Assembly (NCBI GenBank): GCA_963825685.1
Contig: CAWGUD010000027.1
Span: forward strand, 130,538 to 154,537
Reading direction: 5' to 3'
Source: an uncultured Actinomycetes bacterium
Lineage (GTDB): Bacteria; Actinomycetota; UBA4738; HRBIN12
DNA: 24,000 bases
Of this stretch, positions 6,499 to 22,630 are shown in pieces. The position numbers were made by a program, and so were the translations under genes. How positions within the stretch are numbered: the stretch's first letter is position 1; each line of letters opens with the position of its first letter. Under the pieces are notes generated by a model. It was given only the letters and a program-made list of their open reading frames with translations. It was not told where the DNA came from and searched no databases.

Positions 6499-8886
6499 CT
6501 ACGTGGTCGCCGGGGTCCCGGCGGTCGGGCTCGGGTCGGGCCCGACCTCGGGCGCCGACAGGTGGAACGGCACGCTCGTGACCACGACACCCGGCTCGAA
6601 GAGCAGCACCCGTTTGAAGAACAGGGCGGTCTGGTTGTGCAACAGGTTCTCCCACCAGTGTCGTGGCACGAGCTCGGGCAGCACGACGGTGACCACGGTG
6701 TCGCCGCGTGATGTGTGCGCGCGGATCTCTTCGAGCAACGGCGGACCGAAGTCGCGGAAGGGAGCCTCGACCAGCACGAGCGGCACGTCGAGCTGCCGCT
6801 CGTGCCACTCGTCCACCACGCCCTCGACCTCGTCGGGATCGGTGACCATGTAGATCGCCTCGATCGCGGTGGGGTGCAGCGACTTGCCGTAGATCACGGC
6901 ACGCACCGTCGGATCGTGCACCGCGGAGACGGGCACGAGGACCACCGTGCGCTCCGGCTCGAGCGGTCGATCGCCGAGCCAGGTCGGCCGCGCTTCCGAC
7001 GGCACGAGCGGCACGTCGGTCACGACCACTCGCGGCTCGAACAGCAGCGCCGTCTTCAGCAGGAACGCCTCCCGATGTCGCACGAACTGCCAGACCGTGT
7101 TGCGCGGAAGCAGCTCGGGGATCACGACCGTGAGGAATCGGTCCCGCTCGTGGCGAGGCACCGAGCGCACGAAGCGACGGACGGATCGGACGAGGTGCCG
7201 GTCGGCGCCTCGGAGCGGCTCCAGCTCGCCCATGCGGGGGGCGATCACCGACCACTCCGCCGCCACGCCCTCGAACGCATCGGCAGGGCCGACGTACAGC
7301 GCGTTGAAGCTGGTGGGGCGAACGGCCCGCAGGTAGGCGACCGCATCACGGGTCGCGAGCCCCAGGTCGGGCACGAGCAGCAGCATCGTGCCGCTCGCGG
7401 CGTCGCGCCCGGTCAGGCGGCGAGCCTGCAGCGCGCGCGCCACGTGCTCGTAGTGGCGATGCACCGCCCAGAAGAACAGCACGATGAACGGCATCGCGAC
7501 GATCACGATCCAGGCGCCCTTGGCGAACTTCGTGACCGTGACGACGACGAGCACGACGCCGGTCGTGGCCGCGCCGATGCCGTTGATCACGGCGCTCCGC
7601 TGCCAGCTCCCCTCCTTCGTCCGCATCCAGCGCCGGACCATGCCCGCCTGCGACAGCGTGAAGGCCGTGAACACGCCGACGACGTAGAGCTGGATCAGCC
7701 GCGTGAGGTTGGCGTCGAACGCCCAGATCAGCATCGCCGCGAGACCGGCGAGGACGACGACGCCGTTCGAGAAGACGAGCCGGTCGCCCCGGTTGCGGAA
7801 CTGCGAGGGCATGAAGCGGTCGCGCGCGAGGATCGAGGCGAGCCGAGGGAAGTCCTGGAACGCCGTGTTGGCCGCGAGGATCAGGATGCCCGCGGTGAAC
7901 ACCTGCAGCAGCAGGAACATGAAGCCGCCGCCGAAGACCGTGTCGCCGATCTGGGCCAGCACCGGCAGCTCGTGGACGATGTCCTCGCTGATCCGCACGT
8001 GCAGGAGCACGGAGAGCGCGGTGATGCCGAGGAACATCGTGATCGACATCGCTCCCATCACCGCGAGGGTGGTCGCGGCGTTCCTCGCCTGCGGCCTGCG
8101 GAACGCCGGCACCCCGTCGGCGATCGCCTCGACGCCGGTCAACGCGGTCGCACCCGACGAGAACGCGCGCGCGATCAGGAACAGCGTCAGCGTGTGCTCG
8201 ACCTCGAGGGGAAGGTCAGCGGTCTCGGCGAGCGGGCAGCCGCCCATGCAGCGGACGAAGCCCGTCACGAGCGTGATCGCGATCATCAGCACGAACCCGT
8301 AGGTCGGGATCGCGAACAGCGACCCGGCCTCCTTCACGCCTCGGAGGTTGGCGAGGGTCACGAGGGCGACGAGCGCGATCGCGATCGGCACGCGCATCGG
8401 TACGAGGGTCTCCGGTGCGACGGAGGCGATCGCCGTGGTCCCCGCGGTGATGCTCACCGCCACGGTCAGCACGTAGTCGGTCAGGATCGCGGCGGCGGCG
8501 GTGAGGCCGGGGATCGTCCCCAGGTTCTCGCGGGCGACGATGTAGGAGCCGCCGCCGGTGGGATAGGCACGCACCGTCTGCCGGTACGACGTGACGACGA
8601 TGGCCAGCAGCAGGGCGATCGCCAGCGCGATCGGCATCCTGAGCGTGAGGGCCCCGGCCCCGGCCGCCACGAGCACGAGCATCATCTCCTCGGTGGCGTA
8701 CGCGTTCGAGGAGAGGGGGTCGGAGGAGAAGACCGGCAGGGCGAGGAACTTCGGCAGGAGCTGGTGCTCGGCCTTGTCGGAGGCGATGGCCCGTCCGACG
8801 AACAGTCGCTTCAGGGGGCCCCCACCGACCCTGCGAGGGAGTTGCAGCTCTGCAGGCACGGCGAGCATCCTCGCACGTCGCGGCAC
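6499..8886 (-). CDS. APC-superfamily permease, KimA-type K+/H+ symporter-like, with two tandem C-terminal cytoplasmic domains (paralogue 2)
   Basis: 795-aa ORF, colinear paralogue of 4126..6489 with the same motifs (LKRLFVGRAIAS..AEHQLLPKFLALPVFSSDPLSSNAYATEE, SYRQTVRAYPTGGGSYIVARENLG, ARAFSSGATALTGVEAIADGVPAFRRPQARNAA, RGDRLVFSNG). Its stop lies 9 nt before the start of paralogue 1. The start is uncertain: GTG 8886 or ATG 8868. Confidence 0.8.
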   Translation of the reverse strand: MPRRARMLAVPAELQLPRRVGGGPLKRLFVGRAIASDKAEHQLLPKFLALPVFSSDPLSSNAYATEEMMLVLVAAGAGALTLRMPIALAIALLLAIVVTSYRQTVRAYPTGGGSYIVARENLGTIPGLTAAAAILTDYVLTVAVSITAGTTAIASVAPETLVPMRVPIAIALVALVTLANLRGVKEAGSLFAIPTYGFVLMIAITLVTGFVRCMGGCPLAETADLPLEVEHTLTLFLIARAFSSGATALTGVEAIADGVPAFRRPQARNAATTLAVMGAMSITMFLGITALSVLLHVRISEDIVHELPVLAQIGDTVFGGGFMFLLLQVFTAGILILAANTAFQDFPRLASILARDRFMPSQFRNRGDRLVFSNGVVVLAGLAAMLIWAFDANLTRLIQLYVVGVFTAFTLSQAGMVRRWMRTKEGSWQRSAVINGIGAATTGVVLVVVTVTKFAKGAWIVIVAMPFIVLFFWAVHRHYEHVARALQARRLTGRDAASGTMLLLVPDLGLATRDAVAYLRAVRPTSFNALYVGPADAFEGVAAEWSVIAPRMGELEPLRGADRHLVRSVRRFVRSVPRHERDRFLTVVIPELLPRNTVWQFVRHREAFLLKTALLFEPRVVVTDVPLVPSEARPTWLGDRPLEPERTVVLVPVSAVHDPTVRAVIYGKSLHPTAIEAIYMVTDPDEVEGVVDEWHERQLDVPLVLVEAPFRDFGPPLLEEIRAHTSRGDTVVTVVLPELVPRHWWENLLHNQTALFFKRVLLFEPGVVVTSVPFHLSAPEVGPDPSPTAGTPATT

Positions 8887-8905: not shown

Positions 8906-9595
8906 CTAGCCGGCGACCTCGGCCACCCAGCGATAGCCGACCCCCGGCTCCGTGACGATCAGGGCCGGGGCCTGCGCATCGTCGCCGAGCTTCTTCCGCA
9001 GGGCACGCACGTAGGTGCGCAGGTAGGTCGTCTCGGTCCCGTAGCCCTGCCCCCACACCTTCCGCAGGAGCCACTGATGGGTGAGGAGCTTGCCCGGGTT
9101 CGTCACGAGCGCCTCGAGCAGGCCGTACTCCGTGGGTGTGAGCCGCACCTGCTCGCCGTCGAGGGTCACCAGCCGACGGGGAAGGTCGACCTCGATCCTG
9201 CCGAACCGCAGCACGGGTGCGGATGGCTCGTCAGACTGCTTGCGGCGCATAGCAGCCCGGGCCCGGGCGAGGAGCTCCTCCATGCCGAAGGGCTTCGTGA
9301 CGTAGTCATCGGCGCCCGCGTCGAGCGCGGCGACCTTGTCGGTCTGAGATTCCCGCACCGAGAGCACGATCACCGGCACGTCGCTGAACCCGCGAACACG
9401 GCGGATCACCTCGGTCCCGTCGATGTCGGGGAGCCCGAGGTCCAGCAGCACGAGATCGGGCGCCTGCTCGGCAGCGCCGACGACCCCTTCCTCGCCGGTG
9501 CCGACGGTCGCGACGTCGTACCCGTGGGCCTCGAGGCTCGTGCGAAGCGCCCGTCTGATCTGCGGCTCGTCGTCGACGACGAGGACCAGGGTCAT
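8906..9595 (-). CDS. OmpR/PhoB-family response regulator, KdpE paralogue
   Basis: 229 aa with a receiver domain (VVDDEPQI...DLGLPDIDG...KPF) and a winged helix (LTPTEYGLLEALVTNPGKLLTHQWLLRKVWG...YLRTYVRALRKKL). By eye it is about half identical to the KdpE at 14866..15552. Its ATG overlaps the stop of the upstream kinase (ATGA). Confidence 0.9.
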   Translation of the reverse strand: MTLVLVVDDEPQIRRALRTSLEAHGYDVATVGTGEEGVVGAAEQAPDLVLLDLGLPDIDGTEVIRRVRGFSDVPVIVLSVRESQTDKVAALDAGADDYVTKPFGMEELLARARAAMRRKQSDEPSAPVLRFGRIEVDLPRRLVTLDGEQVRLTPTEYGLLEALVTNPGKLLTHQWLLRKVWGQGYGTETTYLRTYVRALRKKLGDDAQAPALIVTEPGVGYRWVAEVAG

Positions 9596-11106
9596 GTGCG
9601 CGCCTCCTGATCGGCCGGGACCCCGGCGCGAGCGAGGTCGGCCTCGAGTCCCGGCGTGTACGCGGGGATCTCGAACACGAAGGTCGCGCCCTCACCGACC
9701 GCGTCCTCGACCCAGATGCGGCCGCCGTGCGCCGTGACGATCGCGTTCGCGATCGCGAGTCCCAGGCCGGTGCCGGGGGAATCCGGGATCGAGGCGCCTC
9801 GGTAGAAGGCCTCGAAGATGCGCTCGCGGTCACCGTCAGGAACGCCGGGCCCCTGATCGGTCACCCGCACGATGACGTGATCGTTCGACGGCGCGACCGA
9901 CAGCCTCACCTCACCTCCGGGCGGCGAGTGGCGTGCGGCGTTCTCGAGCAGGTTCGTCATCACCTGGTCGAGCTGCATCTCGTCGACGGCGACCGGGGGC
10001 ACGTCATCGTCGATGTCGAGCACGATCCGCACGTCGTGCAGGCGCGGCACGAGCCGGGCGACGACGACCTCCGCGATCTCGTCGAGACCGGCCTCGTTGC
10101 GGGCGGGGATCAGGGCGCCCGCCCGGATGCGCGCGAGGTCGAGGATGTTGCCGACCAGTCGGTTCAGCCGGTCGGTCTCCTCGAGGATCGTCGTGAGCAG
10201 CTCCCGTTCCTGCGTCGGATCGTGCTCCACGCTGGGATCGAGCAGGCTCGTGACCCCCGCCTTGATCGACGCGAGCGGCGTGCGGAAGTCGTGGGTCACC
10301 GAACTGAACATCGCCGCGCGCAGCTGGTTCGTCTCGGCATCGAGCTGCGCGAGCCGGGCGCGGGCGTCGAGCCGAGCGCGGTCGAGCGCGGCGGCGGCCT
10401 GCTTCGATGCCGCCTCGAGGAGGAGCTGCTCGTGCGGCCCGAGGGGCCGACGTCCGGCGGGGCGCTCGACCCGCAGCGTGCCGAACGAGACCGGCCCGAC
10501 GACGAGGGGCACCACGCTGTCCGGACCGCCGGGCGTGAGCTCGGAGCGCTCCGCGCGCGCGCGGAGCTGCGTGCCGTCGAGCTCGACGTGCACCTCGGCC
10601 GAGACCAGCCCGAACGGCTCCAGCAGCACGCGCACGAAATCGTCGAGCACCCGGTCGGGCACCTCGCCCGAGACGAACCTCGACGAGAGGTGCCCGAGCA
10701 GGCGTGCCTCGCGCTCACGACGGCTCGCCCGGGCCCGCTCCTCGGCGGCACCCCCGACCAGGATGCCGACGACGAGCGCCACGGTCAGGAACACCACCGC
10801 GGTGACCGCCTCCTCGGTGCCCTCGAGCTGCAGGGCAAGCCCCTGTGCCTCGGACAGGAACACGAGCCCCAGCGACGACAGGATCGCAGCGAGGAGGCCC
10901 GCCCAGAGGCCACCCGCGACCGTCGCGATCACGATCGCCAGCAGGAAGAGCGCGATCGCGGCCGCCGGCCCGTTGCGGGCGAGCGGGATCGAGGCCACGC
11001 CGGCGGCCGCGGGGGCGACCACCGCGATCGCCACCCCGCGGACGCGCAGGCCGGGGAATCGGCGCCGTTCCGGCTCGTTCACTCCCAGATCCATCGTGTT
11101 GGCCAT
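9592..11106 (-). CDS. Sensor histidine kinase, KdpD C-terminal-half type (TM/DUF4118-like + GAF-like + HisKA + HATPase_c), lacking the KdpD N-terminal and Usp domains
   Basis: 504 aa. The H-box FSSVTHDFRTPLASIKAGVTSL is near-identical to that of KdpD in this window (LSAVSHDLRTPLASIKAAASSL). The N, G1 and G2 boxes are present (LLENAARHSP, DQGPGVP, GTGLGLAI). The N-terminus has 3-4 TM helices, and no Walker-A KdpD domain is present. Confidence 0.85.
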   Translation of the reverse strand: MANTMDLGVNEPERRRFPGLRVRGVAIAVVAPAAAGVASIPLARNGPAAAIALFLLAIVIATVAGGLWAGLLAAILSSLGLVFLSEAQGLALQLEGTEEAVTAVVFLTVALVVGILVGGAAEERARASRREREARLLGHLSSRFVSGEVPDRVLDDFVRVLLEPFGLVSAEVHVELDGTQLRARAERSELTPGGPDSVVPLVVGPVSFGTLRVERPAGRRPLGPHEQLLLEAASKQAAAALDRARLDARARLAQLDAETNQLRAAMFSSVTHDFRTPLASIKAGVTSLLDPSVEHDPTQERELLTTILEETDRLNRLVGNILDLARIRAGALIPARNEAGLDEIAEVVVARLVPRLHDVRIVLDIDDDVPPVAVDEMQLDQVMTNLLENAARHSPPGGEVRLSVAPSNDHVIVRVTDQGPGVPDGDRERIFEAFYRGASIPDSPGTGLGLAIANAIVTAHGGRIWVEDAVGEGATFVFEIPAYTPGLEADLARAGVPADQEART

Positions 11107-11861: not shown

Positions 11862-12554
11862 TCACCCGTCCGAGAGTCGCTCGAGGGCCTCGGGGTCCAG
11901 CAGCAGGTATCGCCGACCGTCGCGCCGGACGATGCCGCGCCGACCGAACTCGGACAGCGTCTTCGACACGCTCTCGCGCGTCACCCCGCACAGGCTCGCG
12001 AGGTCTGCCTGCGAGATCGGTGGCACCGCCGGCACACCGTCGGGTCCATCGTCCCTCGCGAGCTGCAGCAGCCGCTTCGCGAGGCGGCCCTTGAGGTCGA
12101 GCCACACGAGGTCGTCCGCGCTCGTCTCCTTCGCGATCACCTGTCTCGCGAGCGTCCGCAACAGACCGATCGCGAGCGTCGGCACCTCGCTCGCCAGCGA
12201 GATGAACGCCTCCCGCTCGAGGACCCAGATGCGTGCGTCCTCGAGGCACAGGACCGAGGCGGTTCGCTCGGTTTCGGCGAAGACCCCAAGCTCGCCGAAG
12301 AGCCGCACGGATTCCAGCCGGCCCTGCAGCTGCGAGCCCGAGGACGGCGACGACGTGGCGATCTCCAGTCGCCCTTCGAGGAGCATGAACACCTCCGACG
12401 ACGGGTCTCCCTGCATCGTGACGTACGTGCCGGCCCGATAGGCGCGGATCCGCCCCGTCGCCACGACCCGGGCGAGCGTGTCGTCCGGGATGCCGGCGAA
12501 GAGCTCATGCCGGCGCATCGCCCGCATCGCGCGGTCCGTGTCTCGGGTGCTCAT
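11862..12554 (-). CDS. Crp/Fnr-family cyclic-nucleotide-binding transcriptional regulator
   Basis: Lies within ORF 11862..12620. The start was set at ATG 12554, preceded by GAGGAGGTGG. The cNMP pocket is FGELGVFAETERTASV (compare CAP GELGLFEEGQERSAWV). The HTH is ISQADLASLCGVTRESVSKTLSEF, and its RE..K recognition residues resemble M. tuberculosis Crp SRETVNK. Confidence 0.85.
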   Translation of the reverse strand: MSTRDTDRAMRAMRRHELFAGIPDDTLARVVATGRIRAYRAGTYVTMQGDPSSEVFMLLEGRLEIATSSPSSGSQLQGRLESVRLFGELGVFAETERTASVLCLEDARIWVLEREAFISLASEVPTLAIGLLRTLARQVIAKETSADDLVWLDLKGRLAKRLLQLARDDGPDGVPAVPPISQADLASLCGVTRESVSKTLSEFGRRGIVRRDGRRYLLLDPEALERLSDG

Positions 12555-12658
12555 GCCACCTCCTCGGATGACCCATCGTCGCTCGCGACGGGCCGCGCGT
12601 CGACCCCGCGACACCGGCATGCTGCCGTCGCGCGCGGCGTGGTCTAGGATGCCCCGCG

Positions 12659-13321
12659 ATGCGAGTGATCATCATGGGATGCGGCCGCGTCGGCTCCGAG
12701 CTGTCGAACGAGCTCGTCGACGACGGCCACGACGTCACCGTGATCGACAAGAATCCCGAGGCCTTCTTCCGCTACCCGCCGGGCGACGGTGCGACGACCG
12801 TCGTCGGGCTAGGGTTCGACCGCGACGTGCTGGCGGAGGCGGGCATCGAGGAGGCTGACGCCTTCGTCGCGGTCTCCAGTGGGGACAACTCGAACATCGT
12901 CTCGGCTCGCGTCGCGCTCGAGAACTTCCATGTGCCCAAGGTCGTGGCGCGTATCTACGACCCCCGGCGTGCCGACATCTATGAGCGGCTCAACATCCCG
13001 ACCGTCGCCACCACGAGGTGGGGCGTGAAGCAGATCCAGCTGATGCTGTTCCACGACCGCCAGGAGATCCGCGAGACGCTGGGCGGTGGCGAGCTGCTGC
13101 GCATGCGCATGCCGGTGGGACCCCACATGGTCGGCAAGCCCGCGACCTCCTTCGACGTGCCGGGCAAGATCCTGATCGCCGGGGTATCGCGCGGAGGCGG
13201 CGGCTTCTTGCCCACCCCGGAGAGCACCTTGCAGGCGGGGGACTACCTCGTGGTGATGCTCACGAAGGACGGCATGGACACGCTCGACGAGGTCTTCGAG
13301 CCGGCCGGGGAGCACCACTGA
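12659..13321 (+). CDS. trkA: TrkA-family K+ uptake regulatory protein (RCK: TrkA_N + TrkA_C), CeoB-like
   Basis: 220 aa with a Rossmann motif (MRVIIMGCGRVGSELSNELVDDGHDVTVID) and a C-terminal TrkA_C-like region (LLRMRMP..HMVGKP..FDVPGKILIAGVSRGG...LQAGDYLVV). Confidence 0.9.
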   Translation: MRVIIMGCGRVGSELSNELVDDGHDVTVIDKNPEAFFRYPPGDGATTVVGLGFDRDVLAEAGIEEADAFVAVSSGDNSNIVSARVALENFHVPKVVARIYDPRRADIYERLNIPTVATTRWGVKQIQLMLFHDRQEIRETLGGGELLRMRMPVGPHMVGKPATSFDVPGKILIAGVSRGGGGFLPTPESTLQAGDYLVVMLTKDGMDTLDEVFEPAGEHH

Positions 13322-14041
13322 TGCGGGTCGTCGTCACGGGCGGCGGCGCCGTGGGTCGGCACCTCTCGGTCGACCTGGTCGAGCGCGGCCACGAGGTCAC
13401 CCTGATCGAGCAGGATCGCGGACTCGTCGAGAAGCTCCGGGCGTGGGCGCCGGGGGTGACCGTGATGCACGGTGACGCGTGCGAGCCCACGGTGCTCGAG
13501 GAGGCAGAGCTCTCGGCCACCGACGTGCTCGTGGCGGCCACCGGCGACGACGAGGACAACCTCGTGACCTCGTTGCTCGCGAAGCAGGAGTTCGCGGTGC
13601 CGCGCACGCTGGCCCGCGTGAACCACCCGAAGAACGAGTGGCTGTTCACCGATCAGTGGGGGGTCGACGCCGCCGTCTCGCCGCCGCACATCCTCACCGC
13701 GATGGTCGAGGAAGCCGTCACGGTCGGCGACCTCGTGCGGTTGATCCGCCTCGGGAGCGGTCAGGTCTCGATCGTCGAGATGACCCTCCCCGAAGGGTCG
13801 ACGTCGGTCGGCCGTGCGGTCTACGAGCTGCGCCTGCCCGCCGACTCCGTCGATCGTGGCGATCCTTCGTGAGGGCCACGTCGTGATCCCGCAACCGGAG
13901 ACCGTGCTCGCGGCCGGCGACGAGGTGCTCGCCCTCGCGTCCGGTGCCGTCGAGCGGGATCTGCGCGACGCCGTCGTGGGCGCGGACATGCCCGGCGGGG
14001 TGCCGACCGACGCGATCGACGGCGCCAGCGGCGTCGAGTAG
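13321..14041 (+). pseudogene. trkA: Second TrkA-family RCK protein (CeoC-like), interrupted by a single extra base near 13849-13852
   Basis: Frame 1 (13321->) reads MRVVVTGGGAVGRHLSVDLVERGHEVTLIEQD...VGRAVYELRLPADS and stops at 13872. The next frame (ORF 13814..14041) continues IVAILREGHVVIPQPETVLAAGDEVLALA. Total length is 721 nt, i.e. 240 codons plus 1 base. The ATG overlaps the trkA1 stop (TGATG). Confidence 0.8.
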
Positions 14042-14869
14042 TCAGCCGTCGGCGGTGGTCGCGGCGGCGATCGCCGCTCGCAGCGCTCGGTCTCGTTCGA
14101 GCAGCAAGGCGAGCTGGTTCCCGAACGCCTCCAGGATGCGTCGCTCCGAGGCGCTGAGTGGTTCGCGGACTCCGCGCATCACCAACAGCCCCAGGTTGCG
14201 GCGCCCCACGTTGAGGGGGAGCCGCTCCACGCCCTCCCCACCGCTGGGCGGCACGGCGCCGGGTTCCGTTCCCACCGTCGCCTGCTCCACGAGCCCGCGA
14301 TCGGAACCCTCCTGCACGTACAGGGCGCCGTCCAGGAACCCGAACGACGCCACCACGACCCGCAGCACGCCCTCGTACGGCCGAGGTCCTGGTTGGGGCT
14401 CGACCAGCAGGCGGCTGAGGTCCTGCTGCCTGCGGAGCTCCTCGGCGCGGGCCTCCGCAGCCCGCGCCCGTGCGTCGGCGCGGGCGACGAGCACGGAGAT
14501 CAGCACCGACAGCCCCAGGAAGACGAACAGCACGATCACGTCGTGCGACTTGCCGATCACGAACGTCTCGTACGGGGGTAGGAAGAAGAAGTTGAAGACG
14601 GCGAACCCGAGCACACTCGCCACGATGCCCGGGCCGAGCCCACCCAGGCCGACGCACGCGACGACCAGCACGAGGAAGCCGAACCCCGTCGCGACCGGGT
14701 CGACCCGCTCGCGGATCGCCGGCGCAGCGAGCACGATCGCCGCCGTTCCGGCGACCGCGAGCACGTACGCCGCCGCGACCCGGCCGGAGACCTGGATGCG
14801 CGGACGACGTTGGGGCGGTGTGCCGACCTCGTGCCGGTCGGGCCGATCAGGTGCCTGAGATGCCGTCAT
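14042..14869 (-). CDS. Kinase-less KdpD-like sensor core (DUF4118 transmembrane domain + GAF-like domain)
   Basis: Internal ATG 14869 of ORF 14042..15088, overlapping the kdpE stop (ATGA). It has four TM helices with the DUF4118 hallmark FAVFNFFFLPPYETFVI, then a coiled segment and a GAF-like region (VLRVVVASFGFLDGALYV...LLVMRG...ERRILEAFGNQLALLLERDRA). It ends where the HisKA helix would begin. Confidence 0.75.
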   Translation of the reverse strand: MTASQAPDRPDRHEVGTPPQRRPRIQVSGRVAAAYVLAVAGTAAIVLAAPAIRERVDPVATGFGFLVLVVACVGLGGLGPGIVASVLGFAVFNFFFLPPYETFVIGKSHDVIVLFVFLGLSVLISVLVARADARARAAEARAEELRRQQDLSRLLVEPQPGPRPYEGVLRVVVASFGFLDGALYVQEGSDRGLVEQATVGTEPGAVPPSGGEGVERLPLNVGRRNLGLLVMRGVREPLSASERRILEAFGNQLALLLERDRALRAAIAAATTADG

Positions 14870-15552
14870 GGGGTTCCCTCCGGCTCGAACCGGTACCCCA
14901 TGCCGGGCTCGGTGATGAAGAACCGAGGTCGCGCCGGGTCGGGCTCGAGCTTGCGTCGGATCTGCGCCATGTACACACGCAGGTAGTTCGTCTCGTCGTG
15001 GTACTGCGGCCCCCACACCTCCTGCAGCAGCTGTCGTTGCGTCACGAGCTTGCCCGGGTTGCGGACCAGGATCTCCACGACGTGCCACTCGGTCGGCGTG
15101 AGCCGCACCTCACCCTCGGCGGTGCGCACCCGCGCCGCACCGAGGTCGACCGTGAAGGCGTCGGTCGTGACTTCTGGTTCCTCGTCCGTCGGACGCAGCC
15201 GCCGTTCGGCGGCTCGCAGCCGCGCGAGGAGCTCGTCCATGCCGAAGGGCTTCGTCACGTAGTCGTCGGCGCCGGCGTCGAGGGCACGGACCTTGTCCGG
15301 CTCCTGGTCACGGGCCGAGAGCACGAGGATCGGCATGCGGCTCCATGCCCTGATGCCCTCGATCACGTCGACCCCGTCGATCCCGGGCAAGCCGAGATCG
15401 ACGATCGCCACATCGGGACGTTCACGGGCGGCGATCGCGAGGGCCTCCTCGCCATCGGGGGCGGTCACCACGTCGTACCCACGGGCGCGCAGGTTCGTGC
15501 GGAGCCCGCGCACGATCTGGGGCTCGTCGTCGACCACCAGCACCCGGGTCAT
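14866..15552 (-). CDS. kdpE: Response regulator KdpE
   Basis: 228 aa with motifs LSARDQEPDKVRALDAGADDYVTKPFGMDELLAR and LTPTEWHVVEILVRNPGKLVTQRQLLQEVWGPQY..ETNYLRVYMAQIRRKLE. Its ATG overlaps the kdpD stop. Confidence 0.92.
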   Translation of the reverse strand: MTRVLVVDDEPQIVRGLRTNLRARGYDVVTAPDGEEALAIAARERPDVAIVDLGLPGIDGVDVIEGIRAWSRMPILVLSARDQEPDKVRALDAGADDYVTKPFGMDELLARLRAAERRLRPTDEEPEVTTDAFTVDLGAARVRTAEGEVRLTPTEWHVVEILVRNPGKLVTQRQLLQEVWGPQYHDETNYLRVYMAQIRRKLEPDPARPRFFITEPGMGYRFEPEGTP

Positions 15553-18107
15553 CCACCCACCTCCGCAGGAGGATGCGCCGATGGCTCGGGGAGCGCCTCA
15601 CCGGAGGGCTCGGCGAGCGGGAACGCCACCACCATCGTCAGTCCGCCGCCGGGCGTCTCGTCGGGTGTGAGGGTGCCCCCCATCGCCTGGACGAACCCGC
15701 GAGCCACCGCGAGCCCGAGGCCGACGCCGTCGACACCTGCGCGATCGCCGAGTCGCTGGAACGGTTCGAAGACCCGTTCACGGTCCTCCGCCGGGATACC
15801 GGGGCCACGATCGACCACGCGTAGCTCGACCCGGCCGCTGGCGGCGGATCCGAAGACGCCCACGGGAGCGTCCGGCGGGCTGAACGCCCGCGCGTTCGCG
15901 ACCAGGTTCGCCACCGCACGCTCGAGGAGCGCCGCATCGACGTCGATGCGCGGCAGATCCTCGGGAACGTCGACCTCGACGTCGTGGCCTCGTCCCGGGA
16001 GGCTGGCCAGGGCACGCAGCACCACCTCGTCGAGCCCGACCCTGCTCGGCGTGAGGCGCAACATGCCGCTCTGGATGCGGCTCATGTCGAGCAGGTTGCC
16101 GACGAGCTCGGTGAGCCGGTCTGTCTCTTCCTCGATCGTCGCGAGGAACTCGTCTCGCTCCTCGTCGTCCCACACCACGTCTCGCTGGCGGAGGGAGCTC
16201 GCGGCCGCCTTGATCGAGGCCAGCGGCGTGCGCAGATCGTGCGAGACGGCCGACAGGATCGCCGCTCGCAGGTCACTGACCTCGGAGACCCGCTCGGCCT
16301 CCGCCACGTCGCGTTCCAGCGCCCTCGTCCGCACGGCCGCCGTCAGCTGAGCCGCGAAGGCGGCCAGCACGCGACGCCGATCCGCAGGGAGGCGGCGGCC
16401 GCGGAGGACCAGCACTCCACCGTCCTCGAGGTCGATCGTTTCATCGCCGTCGTCGGGCGAGGCGATCGGCTCACCGGTCGCGGCCTCGACGCGCCACCCC
16501 CGGTCGGTGGTGGGTGTGAGGACCGCGGCGCCCTCGAGCCCGAACGTCGCGACCACCTGCCGCACCAACGTCGGCAGCGGATCCTCCTCCGCCGCGAGCG
16601 ACCCGGCCATCCGCGCGAGCGCCTCGGCCTCACCCCGGCCGCGCGCGGCCTCGGCCCGCGACCGCTCGGCCCGATCGACCAGGATGCTCACGGCGACGGC
16701 GGCGGCGACGAACGCGACGAGGGCCAACAGGTTCTCGGCCTCGGCGATCGTCCACGTGTGGATCGGCGGCGTGAAGAACCAGTTGAGCAGGAGCGAGGCA
16801 GCCACCGCGCTCGCGACCGCGGGCCAGATGCCGCCGACGGCCCCGATCGCGAGCACGAGGATGAAGTAGAGCAGCACATCGGCCGTGAGGCCGAGGGAGC
16901 CACGCGCGGCGGTGAGCGCGAGCGTGAGCAGCGGCAGCCCGACGAGGGCGAGCGCGAACCCCGCGACCTGGCGGGCGGGGGGGAGCCCGACGAGCGCGCG
17001 ACGCCGCTTCGGCGCCCCCCCACCCGCAGGGGCTGCGCTGGAGATCACATGCACGTCGATCGGGCCGGATCGCCGGATCACCCGGTTGATCACCGACCCC
17101 CGGATCAGCTCGGCGACCCGCGACCGATCGCTCTCGCCCAGCACCACCTGGGTGACGTTCTCCGCCCGGGCGACATCGAGGAGCGCGTCCGGCACGCTCG
17201 CGCCGACGACCTCGTGGAACGCGCCACCGAGCGCGCGGACGAGGGTTCGCGTCTCCTCGAGCGCGGCAGCATCGGCGACGCCGTCCTCAGGCACCACATG
17301 CACGGCGACGAGGTCCCCACCGCGCCGCGTGGCCATGCGCGACCCCCGACGGATCAAGTTCTCGTCCTCATCGGGACGACCGGTCACCCCGACCAGGACG
17401 CGTTCGCGCGTCTCCCACGGCCCTTCGATGTCGTGGACCCGCATGTACTCGTGCAGCGACTCGTCGACGCGGTCGGCCATCCACAGGAGCGCCAGCTCCC
17501 GGAGGGCGCCGAGGTTCCCCTCTCGGAAGTAGTTGCCGAGCGCGGCGTCGACCTTCCCGGGCGGGTAGATGTTCCCGTGCGCCATGCGACGGCGGAGCGC
17601 GTGTGGGGTCATGTCGACGAGCTCCTGTTGGTCGGCGGCGCGCACGATCTCGTCGGGGATCGTCTCGCGCTGAGCGACCCCGGTGATGCGCTCGACGACG
17701 TCGTTCACCGACTCGAGGTGCTGGATGTTCACCGTCGAGATCACGTCGATGCCCGCTACCAGCAGTTCCTCGACGTCCTGCCAGCGTTTCGCGTTGCGGG
17801 AGCCCGGCACGTTCGTGTGCGCGAGCTCGTCGACCAACGCGACCTCGGGCGCGCGAGCGAGGAGCCCGTCGACATCCATCTCCTCGAACGTCGAGCCTCG
17901 GTACTCGATCAGGCGGCGGGGCAGGACCTCCAGGTCACCGACCTGCTCGGCGGTGCGCGGGCGACCATGGGTCTCGATGAAGCCGACCACGACGTCGGTG
18001 CCGCGGTCGCGGCGCCGTCGGCCCTCGTTCAACATCGCGTAGGTCTTGCCGACGCCCGCGGCGAAGCCGACGTAGATACGCAGCTCGCCGCGGCGACGAT
18101 CGCTCAT
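15549..18107 (-). CDS. kdpD: Sensor histidine kinase KdpD (full length: KdpD-N, Usp, 4 TM/DUF4118, GAF, HisKA, HATPase_c)
   Basis: 852 aa. Motifs: GELRIYVGFAAGVGKTYAMLNEG (Walker A), FIETHGR, LLLNWFFTPPIHTWTI and H-box SAVSHDLRTPLASIK. Its ATG overlaps the kdpC stop. Confidence 0.95.
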   Translation of the reverse strand: MSDRRRGELRIYVGFAAGVGKTYAMLNEGRRRRDRGTDVVVGFIETHGRPRTAEQVGDLEVLPRRLIEYRGSTFEEMDVDGLLARAPEVALVDELAHTNVPGSRNAKRWQDVEELLVAGIDVISTVNIQHLESVNDVVERITGVAQRETIPDEIVRAADQQELVDMTPHALRRRMAHGNIYPPGKVDAALGNYFREGNLGALRELALLWMADRVDESLHEYMRVHDIEGPWETRERVLVGVTGRPDEDENLIRRGSRMATRRGGDLVAVHVVPEDGVADAAALEETRTLVRALGGAFHEVVGASVPDALLDVARAENVTQVVLGESDRSRVAELIRGSVINRVIRRSGPIDVHVISSAAPAGGGAPKRRRALVGLPPARQVAGFALALVGLPLLTLALTAARGSLGLTADVLLYFILVLAIGAVGGIWPAVASAVAASLLLNWFFTPPIHTWTIAEAENLLALVAFVAAAVAVSILVDRAERSRAEAARGRGEAEALARMAGSLAAEEDPLPTLVRQVVATFGLEGAAVLTPTTDRGWRVEAATGEPIASPDDGDETIDLEDGGVLVLRGRRLPADRRRVLAAFAAQLTAAVRTRALERDVAEAERVSEVSDLRAAILSAVSHDLRTPLASIKAAASSLRQRDVVWDDEERDEFLATIEEETDRLTELVGNLLDMSRIQSGMLRLTPSRVGLDEVVLRALASLPGRGHDVEVDVPEDLPRIDVDAALLERAVANLVANARAFSPPDAPVGVFGSAASGRVELRVVDRGPGIPAEDRERVFEPFQRLGDRAGVDGVGLGLAVARGFVQAMGGTLTPDETPGGGLTMVVAFPLAEPSGEALPEPSAHPPAEVGG

Positions 18108-18664
18108 GGCAGTGGGGCCAGCTCCTCCACCGCGATGTTGAGTTCGAGCACGTTCACGCGGGGCTCCCCGAGGAACCCGAAGGTCCGGCCTTCCGTGTGC
18201 TCATCGATCAGCGCCATCACATCGCTCAGCTCGAGGCCTCTGGCCTCGGCGACCCGCGGGGCCTGCAGACGAGCGTACGCGGGACTGATGTGCGGGTCGA
18301 GGCCGCTGCCGCTCCCGGTCACCGCATCGACCGGCACCTCGGAGGCTCCGTCGGAGGACCGGATCGCGTCGAGCCGCTCGGACACCGCGACACCGAGCTC
18401 CGGGTTCGTCGGGCCGAGGTTCGACGGGGCGCTCGCGGCAGGGTCGAAGGCGTCGGGTCGTCCCACGAACCACGCCGGACCTTCGAAGGCTTGGCCGATC
18501 AGCGACGAACCGACGACCTCGCCGTCGTGTGTGACGAGACTGCCGTCAGCCTGGTCGGAGAAGACGACCCGACCGACCCCCCAGATCGCCAGCGGATACA
18601 GCACCCCGACCACGACGGTCAACACCAACAGCATGCGCAGCGCCGACACGATCGCGCGTCCCAT
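18104..18664 (-). CDS. kdpC: K+-transporting ATPase subunit C
   Basis: 186 aa with an N-terminal TM helix (MLLVLTVVVGVLYPLAIWGVG) and the motifs SSLIGQ.F, GSGLDPHISP and PRVNVLELN. Confidence 0.93.
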   Translation of the reverse strand: MGRAIVSALRMLLVLTVVVGVLYPLAIWGVGRVVFSDQADGSLVTHDGEVVGSSLIGQAFEGPAWFVGRPDAFDPAASAPSNLGPTNPELGVAVSERLDAIRSSDGASEVPVDAVTGSGSGLDPHISPAYARLQAPRVAEARGLELSDVMALIDEHTEGRTFGFLGEPRVNVLELNIAVEELAPLP

Positions 18665-20650
18665 CTACACCACCGTCCCGACGAGGAGGTCGATCAACTT
18701 GATGCCGACGAACGGCGCCACGATGCCCCCCAGCCCGTAGATGCCGAGGTTCCGGCGCAACATGGCGCTCGCCGACTTCGGCGTGTATCGCACGCCACGC
18801 AGCGCCAACGGGATCAGGGCGACGATGATCAACGCGTTGAAGATCACCGCCGACAGGATCGCGGAGTTCGGGCTCGACAGGCGCATCACGTTCAAGGTGT
18901 CGAGTCCGGGGTACACGGCGGCGAACATCGCGGGGATGATCGCGAAGTACTTCGCCACGTCGTTCGCGATCGAGAACGTCGTGAGCGAGCCGCGCGTGAT
19001 CAACAGCTGCTTGCCGATCGCCACGATCTCGATCAACTTCGTCGGGTTCGAGTCGAGGTCGACCATGTTGCCGGCTTCCTTGGCGGCGCTCGTCCCCGTG
19101 TTCATCGCGACGCCGACATCGGCTTGCGCGAGGGCGGGGGCATCGTTCGTGCCGTCGCCGGTCATCGCGACGAGCTTGCCGCCGTCCTGCTCACTGCGGA
19201 TCAGCGCCATCTTGTCCTCGGGCGTCGCCTCGGCGAGGTAGTCGTCGACCCCGGCCTCGGACGCGATCGCCTCGGCCGTGCGGGGATTGTCACCGGTGAT
19301 CATCACGGTGCGGATGCCCATCGCGCGGAGCTCGTCGAAGCGCTGCCGCATACCTTCCTTCACGATGTCCTTCAGGTAGACGACGCCGAGCACCCGATCG
19401 TCCTCGGCCACGGTCAGCGGCGTGCCGCCCTGCACCGAGATGCCGGCGACGATCGTGTCGACCTCCTCGGAGACCGAGCCCCCTTGCTCCTCGACCCAGT
19501 GCCGGATCGAGTCCGCCGCTCCCTTGCGAAGGCTGCGCCCGTCGAGGTCGACGCCGCTCATGCGCGTCTGCGCTGTGAACGGCACGAAATCGGCGCCCTC
19601 CAGGTCGCGCCCGCGGAGCCCGTACCGCTCCTTGGCGAGCACGACGATCGATCGGCCCTCGGGCGTCTCGTCCGCGAGGCTGGTGATCTGTGCAGCATCG
19701 GCCAGCTGTTCGACCGTGACCCCGGGCGCGGGCAGGAACTCCGCCGCCTGGCGGTTCCCGAGCGTGATCGTGCCGGTCTTGTCGAGCAGCAGGGTGTTCA
19801 CGTCGCCCGCCGCCTCGACGGCGCGGCCCGACATCGCGAGCACGTTGCGCTGCACCAACCGGTCCATACCGGCGATGCCGATCGCGGAGAGCAGCGCGCC
19901 GATCGTGGTCGGGATCAGGCAGACGAGCAGCGCGACGAGCACGATGATCGTCTGGCGAGCCCCCGAGTAGATCGCCATCGGCTGCAAGGTGACGGTCGCG
20001 AGCAGGAACACGATCGTGAGGCTCGCGAGCAGGATGTTGAGGGCGATCTCGTTCGGGGTCTTCTGTCGCTCGGCACCCTCGACGAGCGCGATCATGCGGT
20101 CGATGAACGTCTCTCCCGGTCGCGACGTGATCTCGACCACGACGCGGTCGGAGAGCACCTTCGTGCCGCCGGTCACGGCGCTCCGGTCGCCACCCGACTC
20201 ACGGATCACCGGGGCCGACTCGCCCGTGATCGCCGACTCGTCGACCGAGGCCACTCCTTCGACGACCTCGCCGTCGCCGGGGATCACCTGACCGGCCTCG
20301 ACGACCACCCGGTCGCCGGGCGCGAGCAGCGTGCCGGGCACCTCTTCCTCGCGGCCGTCCGGGAGCAGGCGCCGTGCCATCGTCTCGGTCCGTGTCGCCC
20401 GCAGGGCCGCCGCCTGGGCCTTGCCTCGACCCTCGGCCACGGCCTCGGCGAGGTTGGCGAAGACCACCGTGAGCCAGAGCCACACGGTGATCAGCCCGGC
20501 GAAGAGCGACGAGTCGCGGACGAACAGGATCGTGGTCAGCACCGATCCGATCTCGACCACGAACATCACGGGGTTGCGCCACATCTGGCGAGGGTCGAGC
20601 TTGCGGAACGCGTCCGGCAAGGACCGCCACAGCAGCTTGACGTCGAACAT
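18665..20650 (-). CDS. kdpB: K+-transporting P-type ATPase subunit B
   Basis: 661 aa starting [35 protein letters not shown]. It carries DKTGTIT, MITGDN and [18 protein letters not shown]. In the ORF track it is fused to an out-of-frame kdpA readthrough (1170-aa ORF). Its ATG at 20650 overlaps the kdpA TGA. Confidence 0.95.
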
Positions 20651-22316
20651 CACGAGAGTCCTTCCACGAGCGGTCCCAGCGACAAGGCCGGGAAGTACGT
20701 CAGCGCCGCGACGATCACGATGACGCCGATCAGCAGCCCCACGAACAGCGGCGAGGTCGTCGGGAAGGTGCCCGACGAGACGGGCACGTGTTGCTTGCGC
20801 GCGAGCGATCCGGCCAGCCCGAGCACGAGCACGATCGAGCCGAACCGCCCCATCAGCATCGCGAGTCCGATCGCCGTGTTGAAGAAGGTCGTGTTCGCAC
20901 CCAGTCCGCCGAACGCGCTGCCGTTGTTGTTCGCGCCCGAGGTGAACGCGTAGAGCACCTCCGAGAGTCCGTGCGGCCCGGGGTTGAAGATCGATGTCAC
21001 GGCGGAGTCGAGCACCACGGCGACGCCCGTGAGCACGAGCACCATCGCGGGAACCAGCAGGATGTAGAGCGAGACCAGCTTCATGTCGGTCGGCTCGATC
21101 TTCTTGCCGAGGTACTCGGGGGTGCGCCCGACCATGAGCCCGGCGATGAAGACGGCGAGCACCGCGAGCACGAGCAGGCCGTACAGACCCGATCCGACGC
21201 CACCCGGCGACACCTCGGAGAGCATCATGTTCACGAGCAGCGACACCGCCCCCGAACGGGGTCATCGAGTCGTGCGCGGCGATCACCGCGCCCGTCGAGG
21301 TGCCGGTCGTTGACGCGGCGAAGGCGGCGCTGACGGGGATGCCGAACCGCACCTCCTTGCCCTCCATGTTGCCGCCCACGACGCCGGCGCCCGCGGCCAC
21401 CTCGACCTGCGGATTGGGCTGGGCCTCGAAGGCCCACGCGAGCAGCACGGAACCGAGCCAGAGCGACGCCATGACCGCGGCGAGCGCGTACCCCTGGCGA
21501 CGGTTGCCGACCATCTTCCCGAACGTGCCGGTGAGCGCGAACGGGATCACCAGGAGCAAGGCGATCTCGAGCAGGTTCGTGAACGGGTTCGGGTTCTCGA
21601 ACGGGTGAGCGGAGTTCGCGTTGTAGAAACCGCCGCCGTTCGTTCCCAGTTCCTTGATCGACTCCTGCGACGCGACGGGACCACCCGGGATCGACTGGTC
21701 CGCGCCCTGCACCGTGGCGATCACCCGTGCCTCGTTGAAGTTCTGCACGACACCCTGGGAGAGGAGCACGATCGCCGCGATGAAGGCGACCGGCAGCAGG
21801 ATGCGGACGGTGGCTCGCACGAGGTCGGCCCAGAAGTTGCCGATCGTCTCGCTCGTGGCCCGGGTGAATCCCCGGATCAAGGCGACGGCGACCGCGATGC
21901 CGACCGCCGCCGAGACGAAGTTCTGCACGGCGAGGCCCACCATCTGCACCAGGTGGCCCATCGTCGACTCACCGGCGTAGGACTGCCAGTTCGTGTTCGA
22001 CGTGAACGACGTCGCCGTGTTGAAGGCCTGGCTCGGCTCGACGCCCGGGAACCCGAGCGAGAGCGGCAGCGACGGCTGCACCCGCTGCAGGAGGTAGAGG
22101 AAGAGCACCGAGACGACCGAGAACGCGAGCACGGAGATCGCGTACCCCGACCAACGCTGCTCTGCCTCGGGGCGCACGCCGGCGAGGCGGAAGATCGAGC
22201 CGTTCGACCCGGAGCGTGCGGGGGGAGTCGAGCGCCCACGCCATGTAGTCGCCGAGCGGCCGGTAGGCGACTACGAGGATCACGATCAGCGCCCCGAGCT
22301 GGATCCAGCCGGCCAT
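20650..22316 (-). pseudogene. kdpA: K+-transporting ATPase subunit A, broken by two single-base insertions (near 22196-22199 and 21246-21253)
   Basis: There are three colinear frame segments. Segment 1 is [39 protein letters not shown] (from 22316). Segment 2 is [27 protein letters not shown]...[11 protein letters not shown]...[20 protein letters not shown]...[11 protein letters not shown]. Segment 3 is [23 protein letters not shown]...[12 protein letters not shown]...[13 protein letters not shown]...[11 protein letters not shown] (to 20650). The 1667 nt equal 555 codons plus 2 bases. Confidence 0.9.
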
Positions 22317-22402
22317 CAGAACCGCTCCGGGAACACGAGGGCGATCACGAGGTAGACGATCAGTCCGAGCGCCAGCACGATGCCCACGACGTCGTCGGTC
22401 AC
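22316..22402 (-). CDS. kdpF: K+-transporting ATPase subunit F (28 aa)
   Basis: Not in the ORF track because it is too short. The GTG at 22402 gives (M)TDDVVGIVLALGLIVYLVIALVFPERF, matching the KdpF pattern (...YL..AL..PE.F). Its stop overlaps the kdpA ATG (TGATG). Confidence 0.8.
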   Translation of the reverse strand: MTDDVVGIVLALGLIVYLVIALVFPERF

Positions 22403-22482: not shown

Positions 22483-22540
22483 GGCGGCCTCCTTCGGTCA
22501 TGGAGCCACGGTAGGACCGAGAACGCTGCGCGGCAGCCGT

Positions 22541-22591: not shown

Positions 22592-22630
22592 CCCGACGCT
22601 CGCGCGCGAGCGGGGCCGACCAGGCGGGCC

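Follow-up and report, generated by a model that had tools for sequence, protein, structure and literature searches.

A transmitter-less KdpD-type sensor core encoded as a conserved, selected gene in K+ islands of uncultured soil Actinomycetota

Introduction

KdpD is a model K+ sensor, and the site and mode of its K+ sensing are still debated. In Escherichia coli KdpD, the proposed K+ sites and sensing domains are the TM and GAF domains, according to the relevant passages of a 2024 survey of KdpD architectures (PMC11018627). The same passages describe split ASK/HK systems made of two polypeptides (Silberberg et al. 2024, PMC11018627), a 'short KdpD' of cyanobacteria and Deinococcus that consists of KdpD-N and Usp only, and versions with a truncated DHpCA in Campylobacterota and Archaea. 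The architectures set out there are full, split, N-terminal-only, and DHpCA-truncated; a TM/GAF-only form is not described in these passages, and the survey explicitly excluded extra variants co-occurring with full-length KdpD. Our literature search found no TM/GAF-only KdpD paralogue.

A four-TM DUF4118 domain joined to a GAF domain also works outside kinases: in PelD it belongs to a membrane subunit that regulates the Pel synthase (PMC7890745). Regulation of a sensor kinase through contact with a membrane protein is represented by MgrB/PhoQ, SafA, and RetS-GacS in the pertinent parts of two reports (10.1101/438515, PMC8498467), the former of which presents MgrB as a membrane protein that inhibits a kinase and is encoded in the regulon (bioRxiv 10.1101/438515).

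Here, we analyzed a window of 24,000 nucleotides from an uncultured Actinomycetes bacterium, in which a 275-aa ORF encodes a four-TM DUF4118 domain and a GAF domain, the sensing half of a KdpD-type histidine kinase. Its product has the middle section of the E. coli-type full KdpD (2KSF for the TM domain, 4QPR/4Y2F for GAF) in common with that protein, and is without the KdpD-N, Usp, and transmitter that the full protein possesses. It resembles the split-type KdpD kinase, as portrayed in those survey passages (PMC11018627), in the four-TM DUF4118 domain, linker helix, GAF, and signaling helix, and both are encoded at kdp loci; the split-type kinase, however, has the DHpCA that the ORF product stops short of. 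Like the kinase-deficient KdpD versions that these passages mention (PMC11018627), it is natural, has no histidine-kinase activity, and is encoded with kdp genes. In those versions, by contrast, the Ser-kinase domain at the N terminus is still there and is deemed their function, whereas the ORF product keeps TM/GAF only and co-exists with a complete KdpD/KdpE pair. The likeness to PelD is one of architecture; PelD carries at its C terminus a GGDEF domain that is degenerate and binds c-di-GMP, and sits in the pel cluster, while the ORF product has no such domain and its gene sits in a K+ island. By analogy with MgrB, SafA, and RetS-GacS, the sensor kinase of a two-component system could receive feedback through direct contact with a membrane protein of its own regulon, although MgrB is an unrelated 47-aa peptide and the ORF product a paralogue of the sensor core, and RetS is a full kinase acting via a DHp that the ORF product lacks. 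The ORF family represents the TM and GAF domains of KdpD isolated in nature as a separate, selected protein, whose gene lies next to kdp, kimA, and trkA and is often translationally coupled to kdpE.

Results and Discussion

The ORF and its K+ island

The features of the island are listed below by their positions in the window.

14042–14869, minus strand: transmitter-less KdpD-type sensor core CDS, 275 aa (translation, Pfam DUF4118, AlphaFold2 (AF2) model, GAF fold matches, and >130 equally short homologue clusters)
14447–14767, minus strand: DUF4118 membrane domain, residues 35–141, with the second outer loop FNFFFLPPYETF (Pfam and 2KSF profile match)
14048–14392, minus strand: GAF-like domain and C-terminal signaling helix, residues 160–274 (AF2, Foldseek, and alignment with sister kinases)
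14866–14881, minus strand: translational-coupling junction, with the GGAGGG Shine-Dalgarno sequence (14881–14876), the ATG (14869–14867), and the kdpE TGA (14868–14866)
14866–15552, minus strand: kdpE, OmpR-type response regulator, the cistron 5′ of the ORF (Pfam Response_reg and Trans_reg_C)
15549–18107, minus strand: fused full-length kdpD (KdpD-N, Usp, DUF4118, HisKA, HATPase_c; Pfam)
18104–22482, minus strand: remaining operon, kdpC to leader ORF (Pfam, tblastn, and sequence), comprising the next five entries
18104–18664, minus strand: kdpC
about 18665–20680, minus strand: kdpB
about 20656–22316, minus strand: kdpA, with two private frameshifts
22316–22402, minus strand: kdpF
22399–22482, minus strand: hydrophobic leader ORF, 27 aa
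12659–14041, plus strand: convergent trkA pair (trkA1, 12659–13321; trkA2, 13321–14041)
9592–11106, minus strand: paralogous DUF4118-GAF-HisKA-HATPase kinase, 504 aa (Pfam)
8906–9595, minus strand: OmpR-type regulator of the 504-aa kinase
6499–8886, minus strand: KimA-type K+ importer, 795 aa (AA_permease_2)
4126–6489, minus strand: KimA-type K+ importer, 787 aa (AA_permease_2)

The minus-strand location of the ORF (14869→14042) was absent from a preliminary description of this DNA. According to that description, the start ATG of the ORF and the stop codon of kdpE overlap, and the sequence agrees: the two form ATGA, with the Shine-Dalgarno sequence 6 nt 5′ of the ATG. An ATGA or GTGA overlap with kdpE is kept in at least nine independent loci (L004/L033, L006/L027, L012, L013, L014, L028, L031, L032, and L034), which implies the proposed co-expression with kdpE. 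Given the ATGA coupling, the ORF should be produced whenever the kdp operon is induced. Its GC3 was 0.877, versus 0.88–0.92 in the adjoining genuine genes.

On the other side, the stops of the ORF and trkA2 adjoin with a 0 nt gap, and nearly all loci share this stop-to-stop abutment, with spacings of −15 to +14 nt; the trkA2 gene of the window carries a private 1-nt insertion near 13850. The 795-aa importer matches B. subtilis KimA (6S3K, 1.3e-120), and the 787-aa importer is ≈50% identical to the 795-aa copy, to which the KimA comparison is confined. The 504-aa kinase/regulator pair neighbors most family loci, and this kinase is a candidate partner of the ORF product. Every K+-island locus examined has a DUF4118-type kinase within 10 kb, and a few family members are solitary, with K+ genes absent nearby.

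The 5′ partner of the family gene varies: it may be kdpE, kdpC, a KimA-type K+ importer gene, or none, and in the latter two contexts the family gene forms a separate unit. Even among near-identical genomes and sister alleles (L014, L015), the 5′ cassette is swapped for a KimA-type gene or nothing, which weakens the idea of an obligate Kdp accessory subunit. The window locus has no split-type KdpD kinase, and neither the gene tables nor the Pfam matches of the scanned ORFs showed a nearby gene for a separate soluble DHp-CA partner. An Rfam riboswitch scan (e.g., for c-di-AMP) of the window and four loci gave zero matches.

Domain architecture

Pfam DUF4118 (PF13493) covered residues 35–141 over the whole profile (1–107; E = 6.4e-22, 77.8 bits versus a cut-off of 28.4). 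The AF2 model (pLDDT 84 overall, above 90 across the GAF region) placed TM helices at residues 29–52, 58–76, 78–95, and 108 onward, the last continuing as a long, charged helix that ends at residue 156. Residues 166–232 form a domain of helix and four strands, and residues 240–274 a C-terminal helix. The GAF sequence profiles remained under their gathering scores (GAF_3, 18.6 bits versus 27; GAF_2, 13.9 versus 28.6). In a Foldseek search of the PDB, all of the top 50 matches contained GAF or GAF-like (CodY, fRMsr) domains, with the E. coli KdpD GAF (4Y2F/4QPR) among the top matches (TM-score 0.61–0.63 on the target), at modest E-values of 1e-3 to 3e-2. The family profile matched 2KSF, the TM domain of E. 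coli KdpD (4.4e-6), as well as the KdpD GAF 4QPR (0.15). An AF2 'dimer' modeled as a tandem fusion reached a pLDDT of only 46.6 and was uninformative.

Pfam searches of the 275-aa product gave zero matches to HisKA, HATPase_c, KdpD-N (PF02702), Usp (PF00582), or GGDEF. Against the KdpD equivalog model NCBIfam NF007793, it scored 32 bits versus a cut-off of 1123, matching only positions 395–522 of 895. Alignment with full-length relatives indicated that it ends ≈15–20 residues ahead of the H-box 'SHDLRSPL'. As it has neither DHp nor CA domains, the ORF product is unable to autophosphorylate or to act on KdpE.

Several structural claims of the preliminary description can be judged from these data. 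The four TM helices, the DUF4118 assignment, and an end ahead of the HisKA helix all stand. Of the domain calls to be confirmed by HMM, DUF4118 exceeds its cut-off, but GAF is sub-threshold by sequence and is recognized as a fold by AF2 and Foldseek. The architecture said to be common with KdpD and the 504-aa kinase is so in domains, but the identities are only 35% (over residues 373–624 of the window KdpD) and 26%, respectively.

A family of fixed length under purifying selection

More than 130 protein clusters (≈110 in one search and ≈30 further in another), whose identity declines from 95% to ≈50%, are equally short and have a common end point. The ≥90% cluster has 22 members of 273–275 aa, and no indels separate the ORF from its Illumina-assembled relative L012 (96% identity). 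In an alignment of 41 sequences, conservation reaches the final helix ('ERRILEAFGNQLALLLERDRxLRAA'), and the outer-loop motif is invariant over all genomic contexts. All members come from uncultured MAGs, and the hosts are only uncultured soil Actinomycetota. Remoter matches of 240–290 aa in an HMM search mostly resembled contig-end fragments, and the search did not establish a broader spread of the TM/GAF-only architecture.

The dN/dS ratios of the ORF against its two closest relatives were 0.085 (L012) and 0.107 (L013); the same comparisons gave 0.04–0.06 for kdpE, 0.07 for kdpD, 0.15–0.17 for kdpC, and 0.14 for the 504-aa kinase (HK504). Across relatives down to ≈70% identity, the GAF/C-terminal half had values of 0.05–0.13. 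In family loci that have a KimA-type gene, or no gene, in place of kdp, the ratio was 0.09–0.24.

The ORF is thus a real, conserved, and selected gene and no broken leftover. The preliminary description had considered that the ORF may be the stump of a third kinase, its catalytic half having been lost when a rearrangement brought it up against trkA2. Of this proposal only a deep kinase ancestry survives: relatives proved equally truncated rather than full-length kinases, constraint is intact and like that of adjoining genes, and the trkA abutment itself is conserved. That the ORF is a functionless remnant, or a truncation produced by assembly error, is highly improbable. The window does hold three private frameshifts elsewhere, two in kdpA and one in trkA2, and the family does descend from a kinase minus its transmitter. 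These indels, however, are confined to kdpA and trkA2, while the same length and end point recur in independent Illumina and long-read assemblies, so that an assembly error is ruled out for the ORF. A pseudogene is largely refuted by the conservation up to the last helix, the fixed end point, and dN/dS values equal to those of neighboring essential-looking genes; moreover, no HisKA/HATPase coding remnant lies 3′ of the ORF, where trkA follows at once.

Relationship to KdpD-type kinases

The closest relatives of the ORF product are split-type KdpD kinases (TM/GAF/DHpCA; 45–57% identity), which excludes a close paralogue of the window KdpD or the 504-aa kinase. In the tree, the kinase-less proteins and split-type kinases are separated from fused KdpD and the HK504 family with a bootstrap of 195/200, and the kinase-less clade by itself received 350/500 (70%). 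The kinase-less family therefore appears to be a single clade, whose sister group is formed by the TM/GAF/DHpCA kinases of split systems, with moderate support for its monophyly. Region by region it is as conserved as the sister kinases, from which it has only 3 fixed differences, and it retains all that is conserved in their sensor core, namely the motif of the outer loop, the linker helix, and the signaling helix that leads from GAF to DHp. These sequence relationships point clearly to derivation of the family from a TM/GAF/DHpCA kinase after transmitter loss.

Possible modes of action

From sequence evidence, the ORF product very probably functions in K+ homeostasis as a sensor paralogue without a transmitter, and its homology to E. 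coli KdpD makes a retained response to K+ probable. Since it cannot phosphorylate, we infer that it must act by protein contacts. As its mechanism we tentatively prefer modulation of DUF4118-type kinases, which is supported by the architecture, the fixed end point, purifying selection, the phylogeny, a constraint equal to that of the sister kinases, the coupling to kdpE, the nearby DUF4118-type kinase, the K+ sensing by KdpD TM/GAF domains and the occurrence of split systems (PMC11018627), and the MgrB precedent. The product, dimerized in the membrane or joined into complexes of mixed composition, would associate with K+-island kinases of the DUF4118 type (KdpD in the window, the 504-aa kinase linked to KimA, or, at other loci, split KdpD kinases) and would tune their kinase/phosphatase balance. 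Because the ORF is made from an operon presumably under the control of the partner kinases, this could form a feedback loop analogous to that of MgrB on PhoQ. If so, the gene would provide a paralogue-derived feedback element in a textbook two-component system. Heterodimerization with KdpD or the 504-aa kinase, as proposed in the preliminary description, is weakened because the closest kinases are of the split type, missing at the window locus; because the gene is kept under selection without an adjacent kdp operon; and because the conserved surfaces do not co-vary with the resident KdpD type, the motifs being alike at loci with a fused KdpD, with a split one, and with none. DHp is the main dimerization determinant of histidine kinases, and since the ORF product has none, a heterodimer with a full kinase is not obviously favored over a homodimer.

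The product might instead be a stand-alone sensor of K+ (or another ligand) that directly regulates a K+ transporter without phosphorylation, serving the Trk/KimA or Kdp machinery as a regulatory membrane subunit, much as PelD serves the Pel synthase; this is possible, if somewhat unlikely, and would constitute a new kind of K+ regulator. It would fit the trkA pair being the sole invariant neighbor, the trkA genes sharing an operon with a KimA-type permease in L004 and L094, the 5′ position being always taken by a system for high-affinity K+ uptake (Kdp or KimA-like) or left empty, the invariance of the motifs whatever the KdpD type, the continued selection without an adjoining kdp operon, and the PelD precedent. 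The convergent arrangement, however, means no co-transcription with trkA, so that the adjacency may be historical only; neither an output domain nor a known transporter-binding motif was found in the ORF product, and the solitary members have no K+ genes nearby. Also rather unlikely is a new transmitter-less class in which a free-standing KdpD-type TM/GAF K+ receptor exerts post-translational control of Trk/KimA/Kdp by direct binding, independently of a phosphorelay. Such a receptor would also provide the K+-sensing part of KdpD already separated by nature, in which the K+ sites could be located. It is improbable that the product acts in trans to anchor a soluble KdpD-N/Usp serine-kinase half at the membrane and to sense K+ for it, the two together equaling the 'KdpD without DHpCA' version of Campylobacterota and Archaea and placing the Ser phosphorylation of KdpB under K+ control. 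The relevant survey passages do identify the KdpD N-terminal domain as an atypical Ser kinase and describe short KdpD/Usp proteins without TM/GAF (PMC11018627), and a distinct KdpD-N/Usp protein (399–412 aa) is encoded at the kinase-less loci L001 and L002. In the window and most loci, however, KdpD is fused and has its own TM/GAF, and the gene is retained without adjacent kdp genes.

The JGI annotation of the kinase-less family reads 'sensor histidine kinase KdpD', a label that is wrong, as these proteins are without a kinase.

A kinase-less KdpD-type protein at the end of the kdp operon

The start codon of the 275-aa open reading frame (ORF) overlaps the kdpE stop codon (TGA, 14868-14866) as ATGA.

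14869 to 14042, minus strand: 275-aa ORF (ATG 14869-14867, TGA 14044-14042)

A Shine-Dalgarno sequence, GGAGGG, lies 6 nt 5' of the ATG within the 3' end of kdpE, and in the window the ORF is predicted to be co-translated with kdpE. Its GC3 (0.877) matches that of the neighbouring genes (0.88-0.92). Pfam assigned residues 35-141 to DUF4118 (E = 6.4e-22; 77.8 bits, cut-off 28.4), and the GAF profiles gave sub-threshold matches only. With the NCBIfam KdpD equivalog model the score was 32 bits (cut-off 1123), and only model positions 395-522 were covered. The protein is thus a DUF4118 member that classifies neither as a KdpD nor as a histidine kinase.

An AlphaFold2 model, calculated from a 41-sequence family alignment (mean pLDDT 84), predicted four TM helices (residues 29-52, 58-76, 78-95, and 108 onward), the last continuing as a long charged helix up to residue 156. 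A compact domain of one helix and four strands (166-232) and a C-terminal helix (240-274) follow. GAF-containing domains accounted for all 50 top PDB matches to this model in Foldseek, with modest E-values (1e-3 to 3e-2); among them was the GAF domain of E. coli KdpD (4Y2F/4QPR; TM-score 0.61-0.63, normalised to the target). The GAF fold is therefore seen in the predicted model, with the sequence profiles remaining below threshold. The family profile matched the NMR structure of the KdpD TM domain (2KSF; 4.4e-6) and the KdpD GAF domain (4QPR; 0.15). A tandem-fusion AlphaFold2 model of the ORF reached a pLDDT of 46.6 and was uninformative. In the alignment, the H-box of full-length relatives, SHDLRSPL, lies about 15-20 residues past the end of the ORF protein. 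The preliminary description of a 275-aa protein with an ATGA start, DUF4118, a GAF-like module and an end where the HisKA helix should begin therefore proved correct.

Extent and conservation of the family

Searching 5.8 billion proteins with the ORF returned 191 relatives, 120 of which were listed. About 110 of these 120 were 237-294 aa long and carried DUF4118 only, with identities from 95% down to 52%; full-length kinases (444-478 aa) first occurred, among the listed relatives, at about 55% identity. A second search, using a distant family member as the query, added about 30 short clusters. Every short member is a metagenome or MAG sequence from uncultured Actinomycetota, in most cases of soil origin; many short matches of an exhaustive HMM search are contig-end fragments, so the search did not establish the architecture outside this lineage. 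In the 41-sequence alignment, conservation extends through the last helix (ERRILEAFGNQLALLLERDRxLRAA), and all stop positions fall within about 13 residues.

Nei-Gojobori comparisons with close relatives gave the following ratios.

dN/dS of the ORF and nearby genes against homologous loci L012 and L013
ORF: 0.085 (L012), 0.107 (L013)
kdpE: 0.04-0.06 (L012/L013)
kdpD: 0.07 (L012/L013)
kdpC: 0.15-0.17 (L012/L013)
504-aa kinase: 0.14 (L012/L013)

The ORF also gave 0.138 against L014 and 0.127 against L001, and its GAF half was the most constrained part (0.05-0.13 among relatives with at least about 70% identity). Selection on the ORF is therefore not relaxed. The earlier proposal that it is the stump of a third kinase is refuted as far as a remnant is meant, as the relatives are equally short, share an end point and show low dN/dS. 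A non-functional remnant or artefact is hardly credible, given this selection, the absence of any indel relative to an Illumina-assembled relative, and a cluster at 90% identity or above whose 22 members, from independent assemblies, are all 273-275 aa long.

Origin

The ORF protein shares 26% identity with the 504-aa kinase of the window and 35% with its fused, single-chain KdpD, compared with 55% for full-length kinases exemplified by P0120. Across a census of 79 genome loci, most of the full-length relatives (45-57% identity) were TM/GAF/DHpCA kinases belonging to split KdpD systems, arranged as KdpD-N/Usp, leftward kdpCBA, and rightward kinase and kdpE, often with a convergent trkA next. 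Neighbour-joining separated the kinase-less proteins and split-type kinases from fused KdpD and the 504-aa-kinase family (bootstrap 195/200), and placed the kinase-less proteins in one clade with moderate support (350/500). Mean divergence within this clade (0.49) was similar to that among the sister kinases (0.57), per-region conservation was equal, and fixed changes occurred at three positions only. Together, these observations point to an old, single (or nearly single) transmitter loss from a split-type KdpD kinase, of which the DHpCA is missing here, and the constraints on the family since then have matched those on the intact sensor core.

Split KdpD, comprising a soluble KdpD-N/Usp (399-412 aa) and a separate TM/GAF/DHpCA kinase, occurs in many related Actinomycetota (L001 1866-5364; L002 1756-5328; L036-L090); in L001 and L002 its genes are divergent from kdpFABC. 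It is described as commonest in Acidobacteriota and Chloroflexota (Silberberg et al. 2024, PMC11018627).

Genomic context

The minus strand of the window carries, in order, H+-PPase, a 121-aa gene, a 27-aa hydrophobic ORF, kdpF, kdpA, kdpB, kdpC, kdpD, kdpE and the ORF. Beyond lie a convergent trkA pair, a Crp-type regulator, the 504-aa DUF4118 kinase with its regulator, and two permeases.

22399 to 22482, minus strand: 27-aa hydrophobic ORF MADVIFVVVTLVVFAALMLLVRGVDRL, ribosome-binding site GAAGGAGG
6499 to 8886, minus strand: 795-aa permease, matching B. subtilis KimA (6S3K, E = 1.3e-120)
4126 to 6489, minus strand: 787-aa permease, a paralogue about 50% identical to the 795-aa permease

The 3' neighbour of the family gene is constant, the trkA stop lying -15 to +14 nt from its own stop at almost every homologous locus. 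The 5' neighbour varies. It is kdpE, overlapping as ATGA or GTGA, at L004/33, L006/27, L012, L013, L014, L028, L031, L032, L034 and L094; kdpC, after a gap of 1-20 nt, at L001, L002, L029 and L043, where a split KdpD is encoded divergently upstream; and a divergent KimA-type permease replacing the whole kdp operon at L017, L019-L021, L023-L026, L091 and L092. Only H+-PPase and a small gene precede it at L015, L016 and L080, and in a small subgroup (L010, L050, L055) it is free-standing with no K+ genes nearby. In the tree the contexts are intermixed, as illustrated by the sister alleles L014 (after kdpE) and L015 (no kdp at the locus), and alleles without an adjacent kdp operon show dN/dS of 0.085-0.24. 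The family gene is thus a standing part of the K+ island, not an obligate kdp appendage. Since the deep-branching L094 is also kdpE-linked, kdp linkage is probably ancestral.

The H+-PPase-to-ORF segment (window 14870-22996; L019, L091, L092, L015, L016) behaves as a swappable cassette. It carries either kdpFABCDE (about 7.7 kb) or one divergent KimA-type gene (about 2.3 kb), or is empty. Swaps are seen even between genomes sharing 96-99% identical flanking genes, as in L019, which has a KimA-type gene where the window has kdp.

Function

The ORF encodes a transmitter-less, membrane-anchored GAF protein with every conserved feature of a K+-sensor core, under purifying selection. Lacking any catalytic or DNA-binding domain, it would have to act through protein contacts. 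Tentatively, we regard it as a modulator that would associate with DUF4118-type kinases and tune their output, giving feedback where it is operon-encoded, a role likened to that of MgrB on PhoQ (10.1101/438515). This is favoured by sensor surfaces that hardly differ from those of the sister kinases, by the presence of a DUF4118-type kinase gene within 10 kb at all island loci examined, and by the conserved kdpE coupling. However, the protein lacks DHp, the main dimerisation element, and is distant from the kinases present in the window genome. Moreover, the loop-2 motif, linker helix and C-terminal helix do not vary with the resident KdpD, be it fused, split or missing from the locus, which argues for self-association and an invariant partner or ligand and against a KdpD-specific decoy. 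The decoy proposed in the preliminary description, heterodimerising with KdpD or the paralogous kinase, is somewhat weakened.

Direct action on Trk, KimA or Kdp transporters is a somewhat unlikely role that would fit the constant trkA neighbour and the exchange of Kdp for KimA. It would resemble that of PelD, which regulates Pel synthase (PMC7890745) and has a GGDEF domain missing here. An improbable role is that of a K+-sensing anchor acting in trans on the soluble KdpD-N/Usp Ser kinase of Silberberg et al. (PMC11018627); such an anchor is an attractive idea for split-KdpD genomes but would be redundant in the window genome.

Relation to described proteins

The passages of PMC11018627 that survey KdpD versions list full-length, split (KdpD/Usp plus TM/GAF/DHpCA), KdpD/Usp-only and DHpCA-truncated forms, leaving out extra variants that co-occur with full-length KdpD; these main-text passages describe no TM/GAF-only version, and literature searches for such a protein found nothing. 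On sequence grounds, the ORF encodes a conserved KdpD-type sensor paralogue that lacks the transmitter and lies within an island of K+-homeostasis genes. The family is uncharacterised, its sequences already being in databases, named by domain only or wrongly as kinases. NCBI uses 'DUF4118 domain-containing protein' (e.g. MEZ0235526.1, MET0800587.1). JGI/IMG labels P0007, P0008, P0010 and other 273-280-aa relatives 'two-component system sensor histidine kinase KdpD'. They lack kinase domains, and this naming is a systematic over-annotation.

Additional features of the island

The 795-aa and 787-aa permeases lie directly 3' of a KdpD-like kinase without the N-terminal domain and a KdpE-like regulator (8906-11106, minus strand), an arrangement that suggests a second K+-responsive two-component system controlling the kimA genes. 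The ORF stop directly adjoins that of trkA2, at a spacing of 0 nt (14039-14044); the family-wide spacing leaves no room for a terminator, so the convergent transcripts must overlap. In L004 (10825-14548) and L094 (8794-12615), a KimA-type permease and both trkA genes are contiguous on one strand, operon-like, and TrkA ring proteins may therefore gate the KimA-type transporter there instead of TrkH. No trkH or ktrB was found among the window ORFs scanned against Pfam. The Crp/Fnr-type cyclic-nucleotide-binding regulator (11862-12620, minus strand), between trkA1 and the 504-aa kinase, was found only in the closest relatives of the window (L012, L019) and is absent from other family loci. The stop of the 27-aa ORF overlaps the kdpF start (GTGA), and its product may be an extra small membrane peptide heading the kdp operon. 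An Rfam search of the window and four loci gave no match.

Three 1-nt frameshifts are private to the window.

near 22197, minus strand: kdpA (20656-22316), at 'ctcGatcttc'
near 21251, minus strand: kdpA (20656-22316), in a G-run
near 13850, plus strand: trkA2 (13321-14041), at 'ccgtCgatcg'

Relatives are intact where comparable (trkA2 in L012, L013, L014 and L019; the whole of kdpA in L013), which makes long-read consensus errors, not pseudogenes, the most likely explanation. Two of the three fall at GATC, which suggests basecalling errors at a methylation motif.
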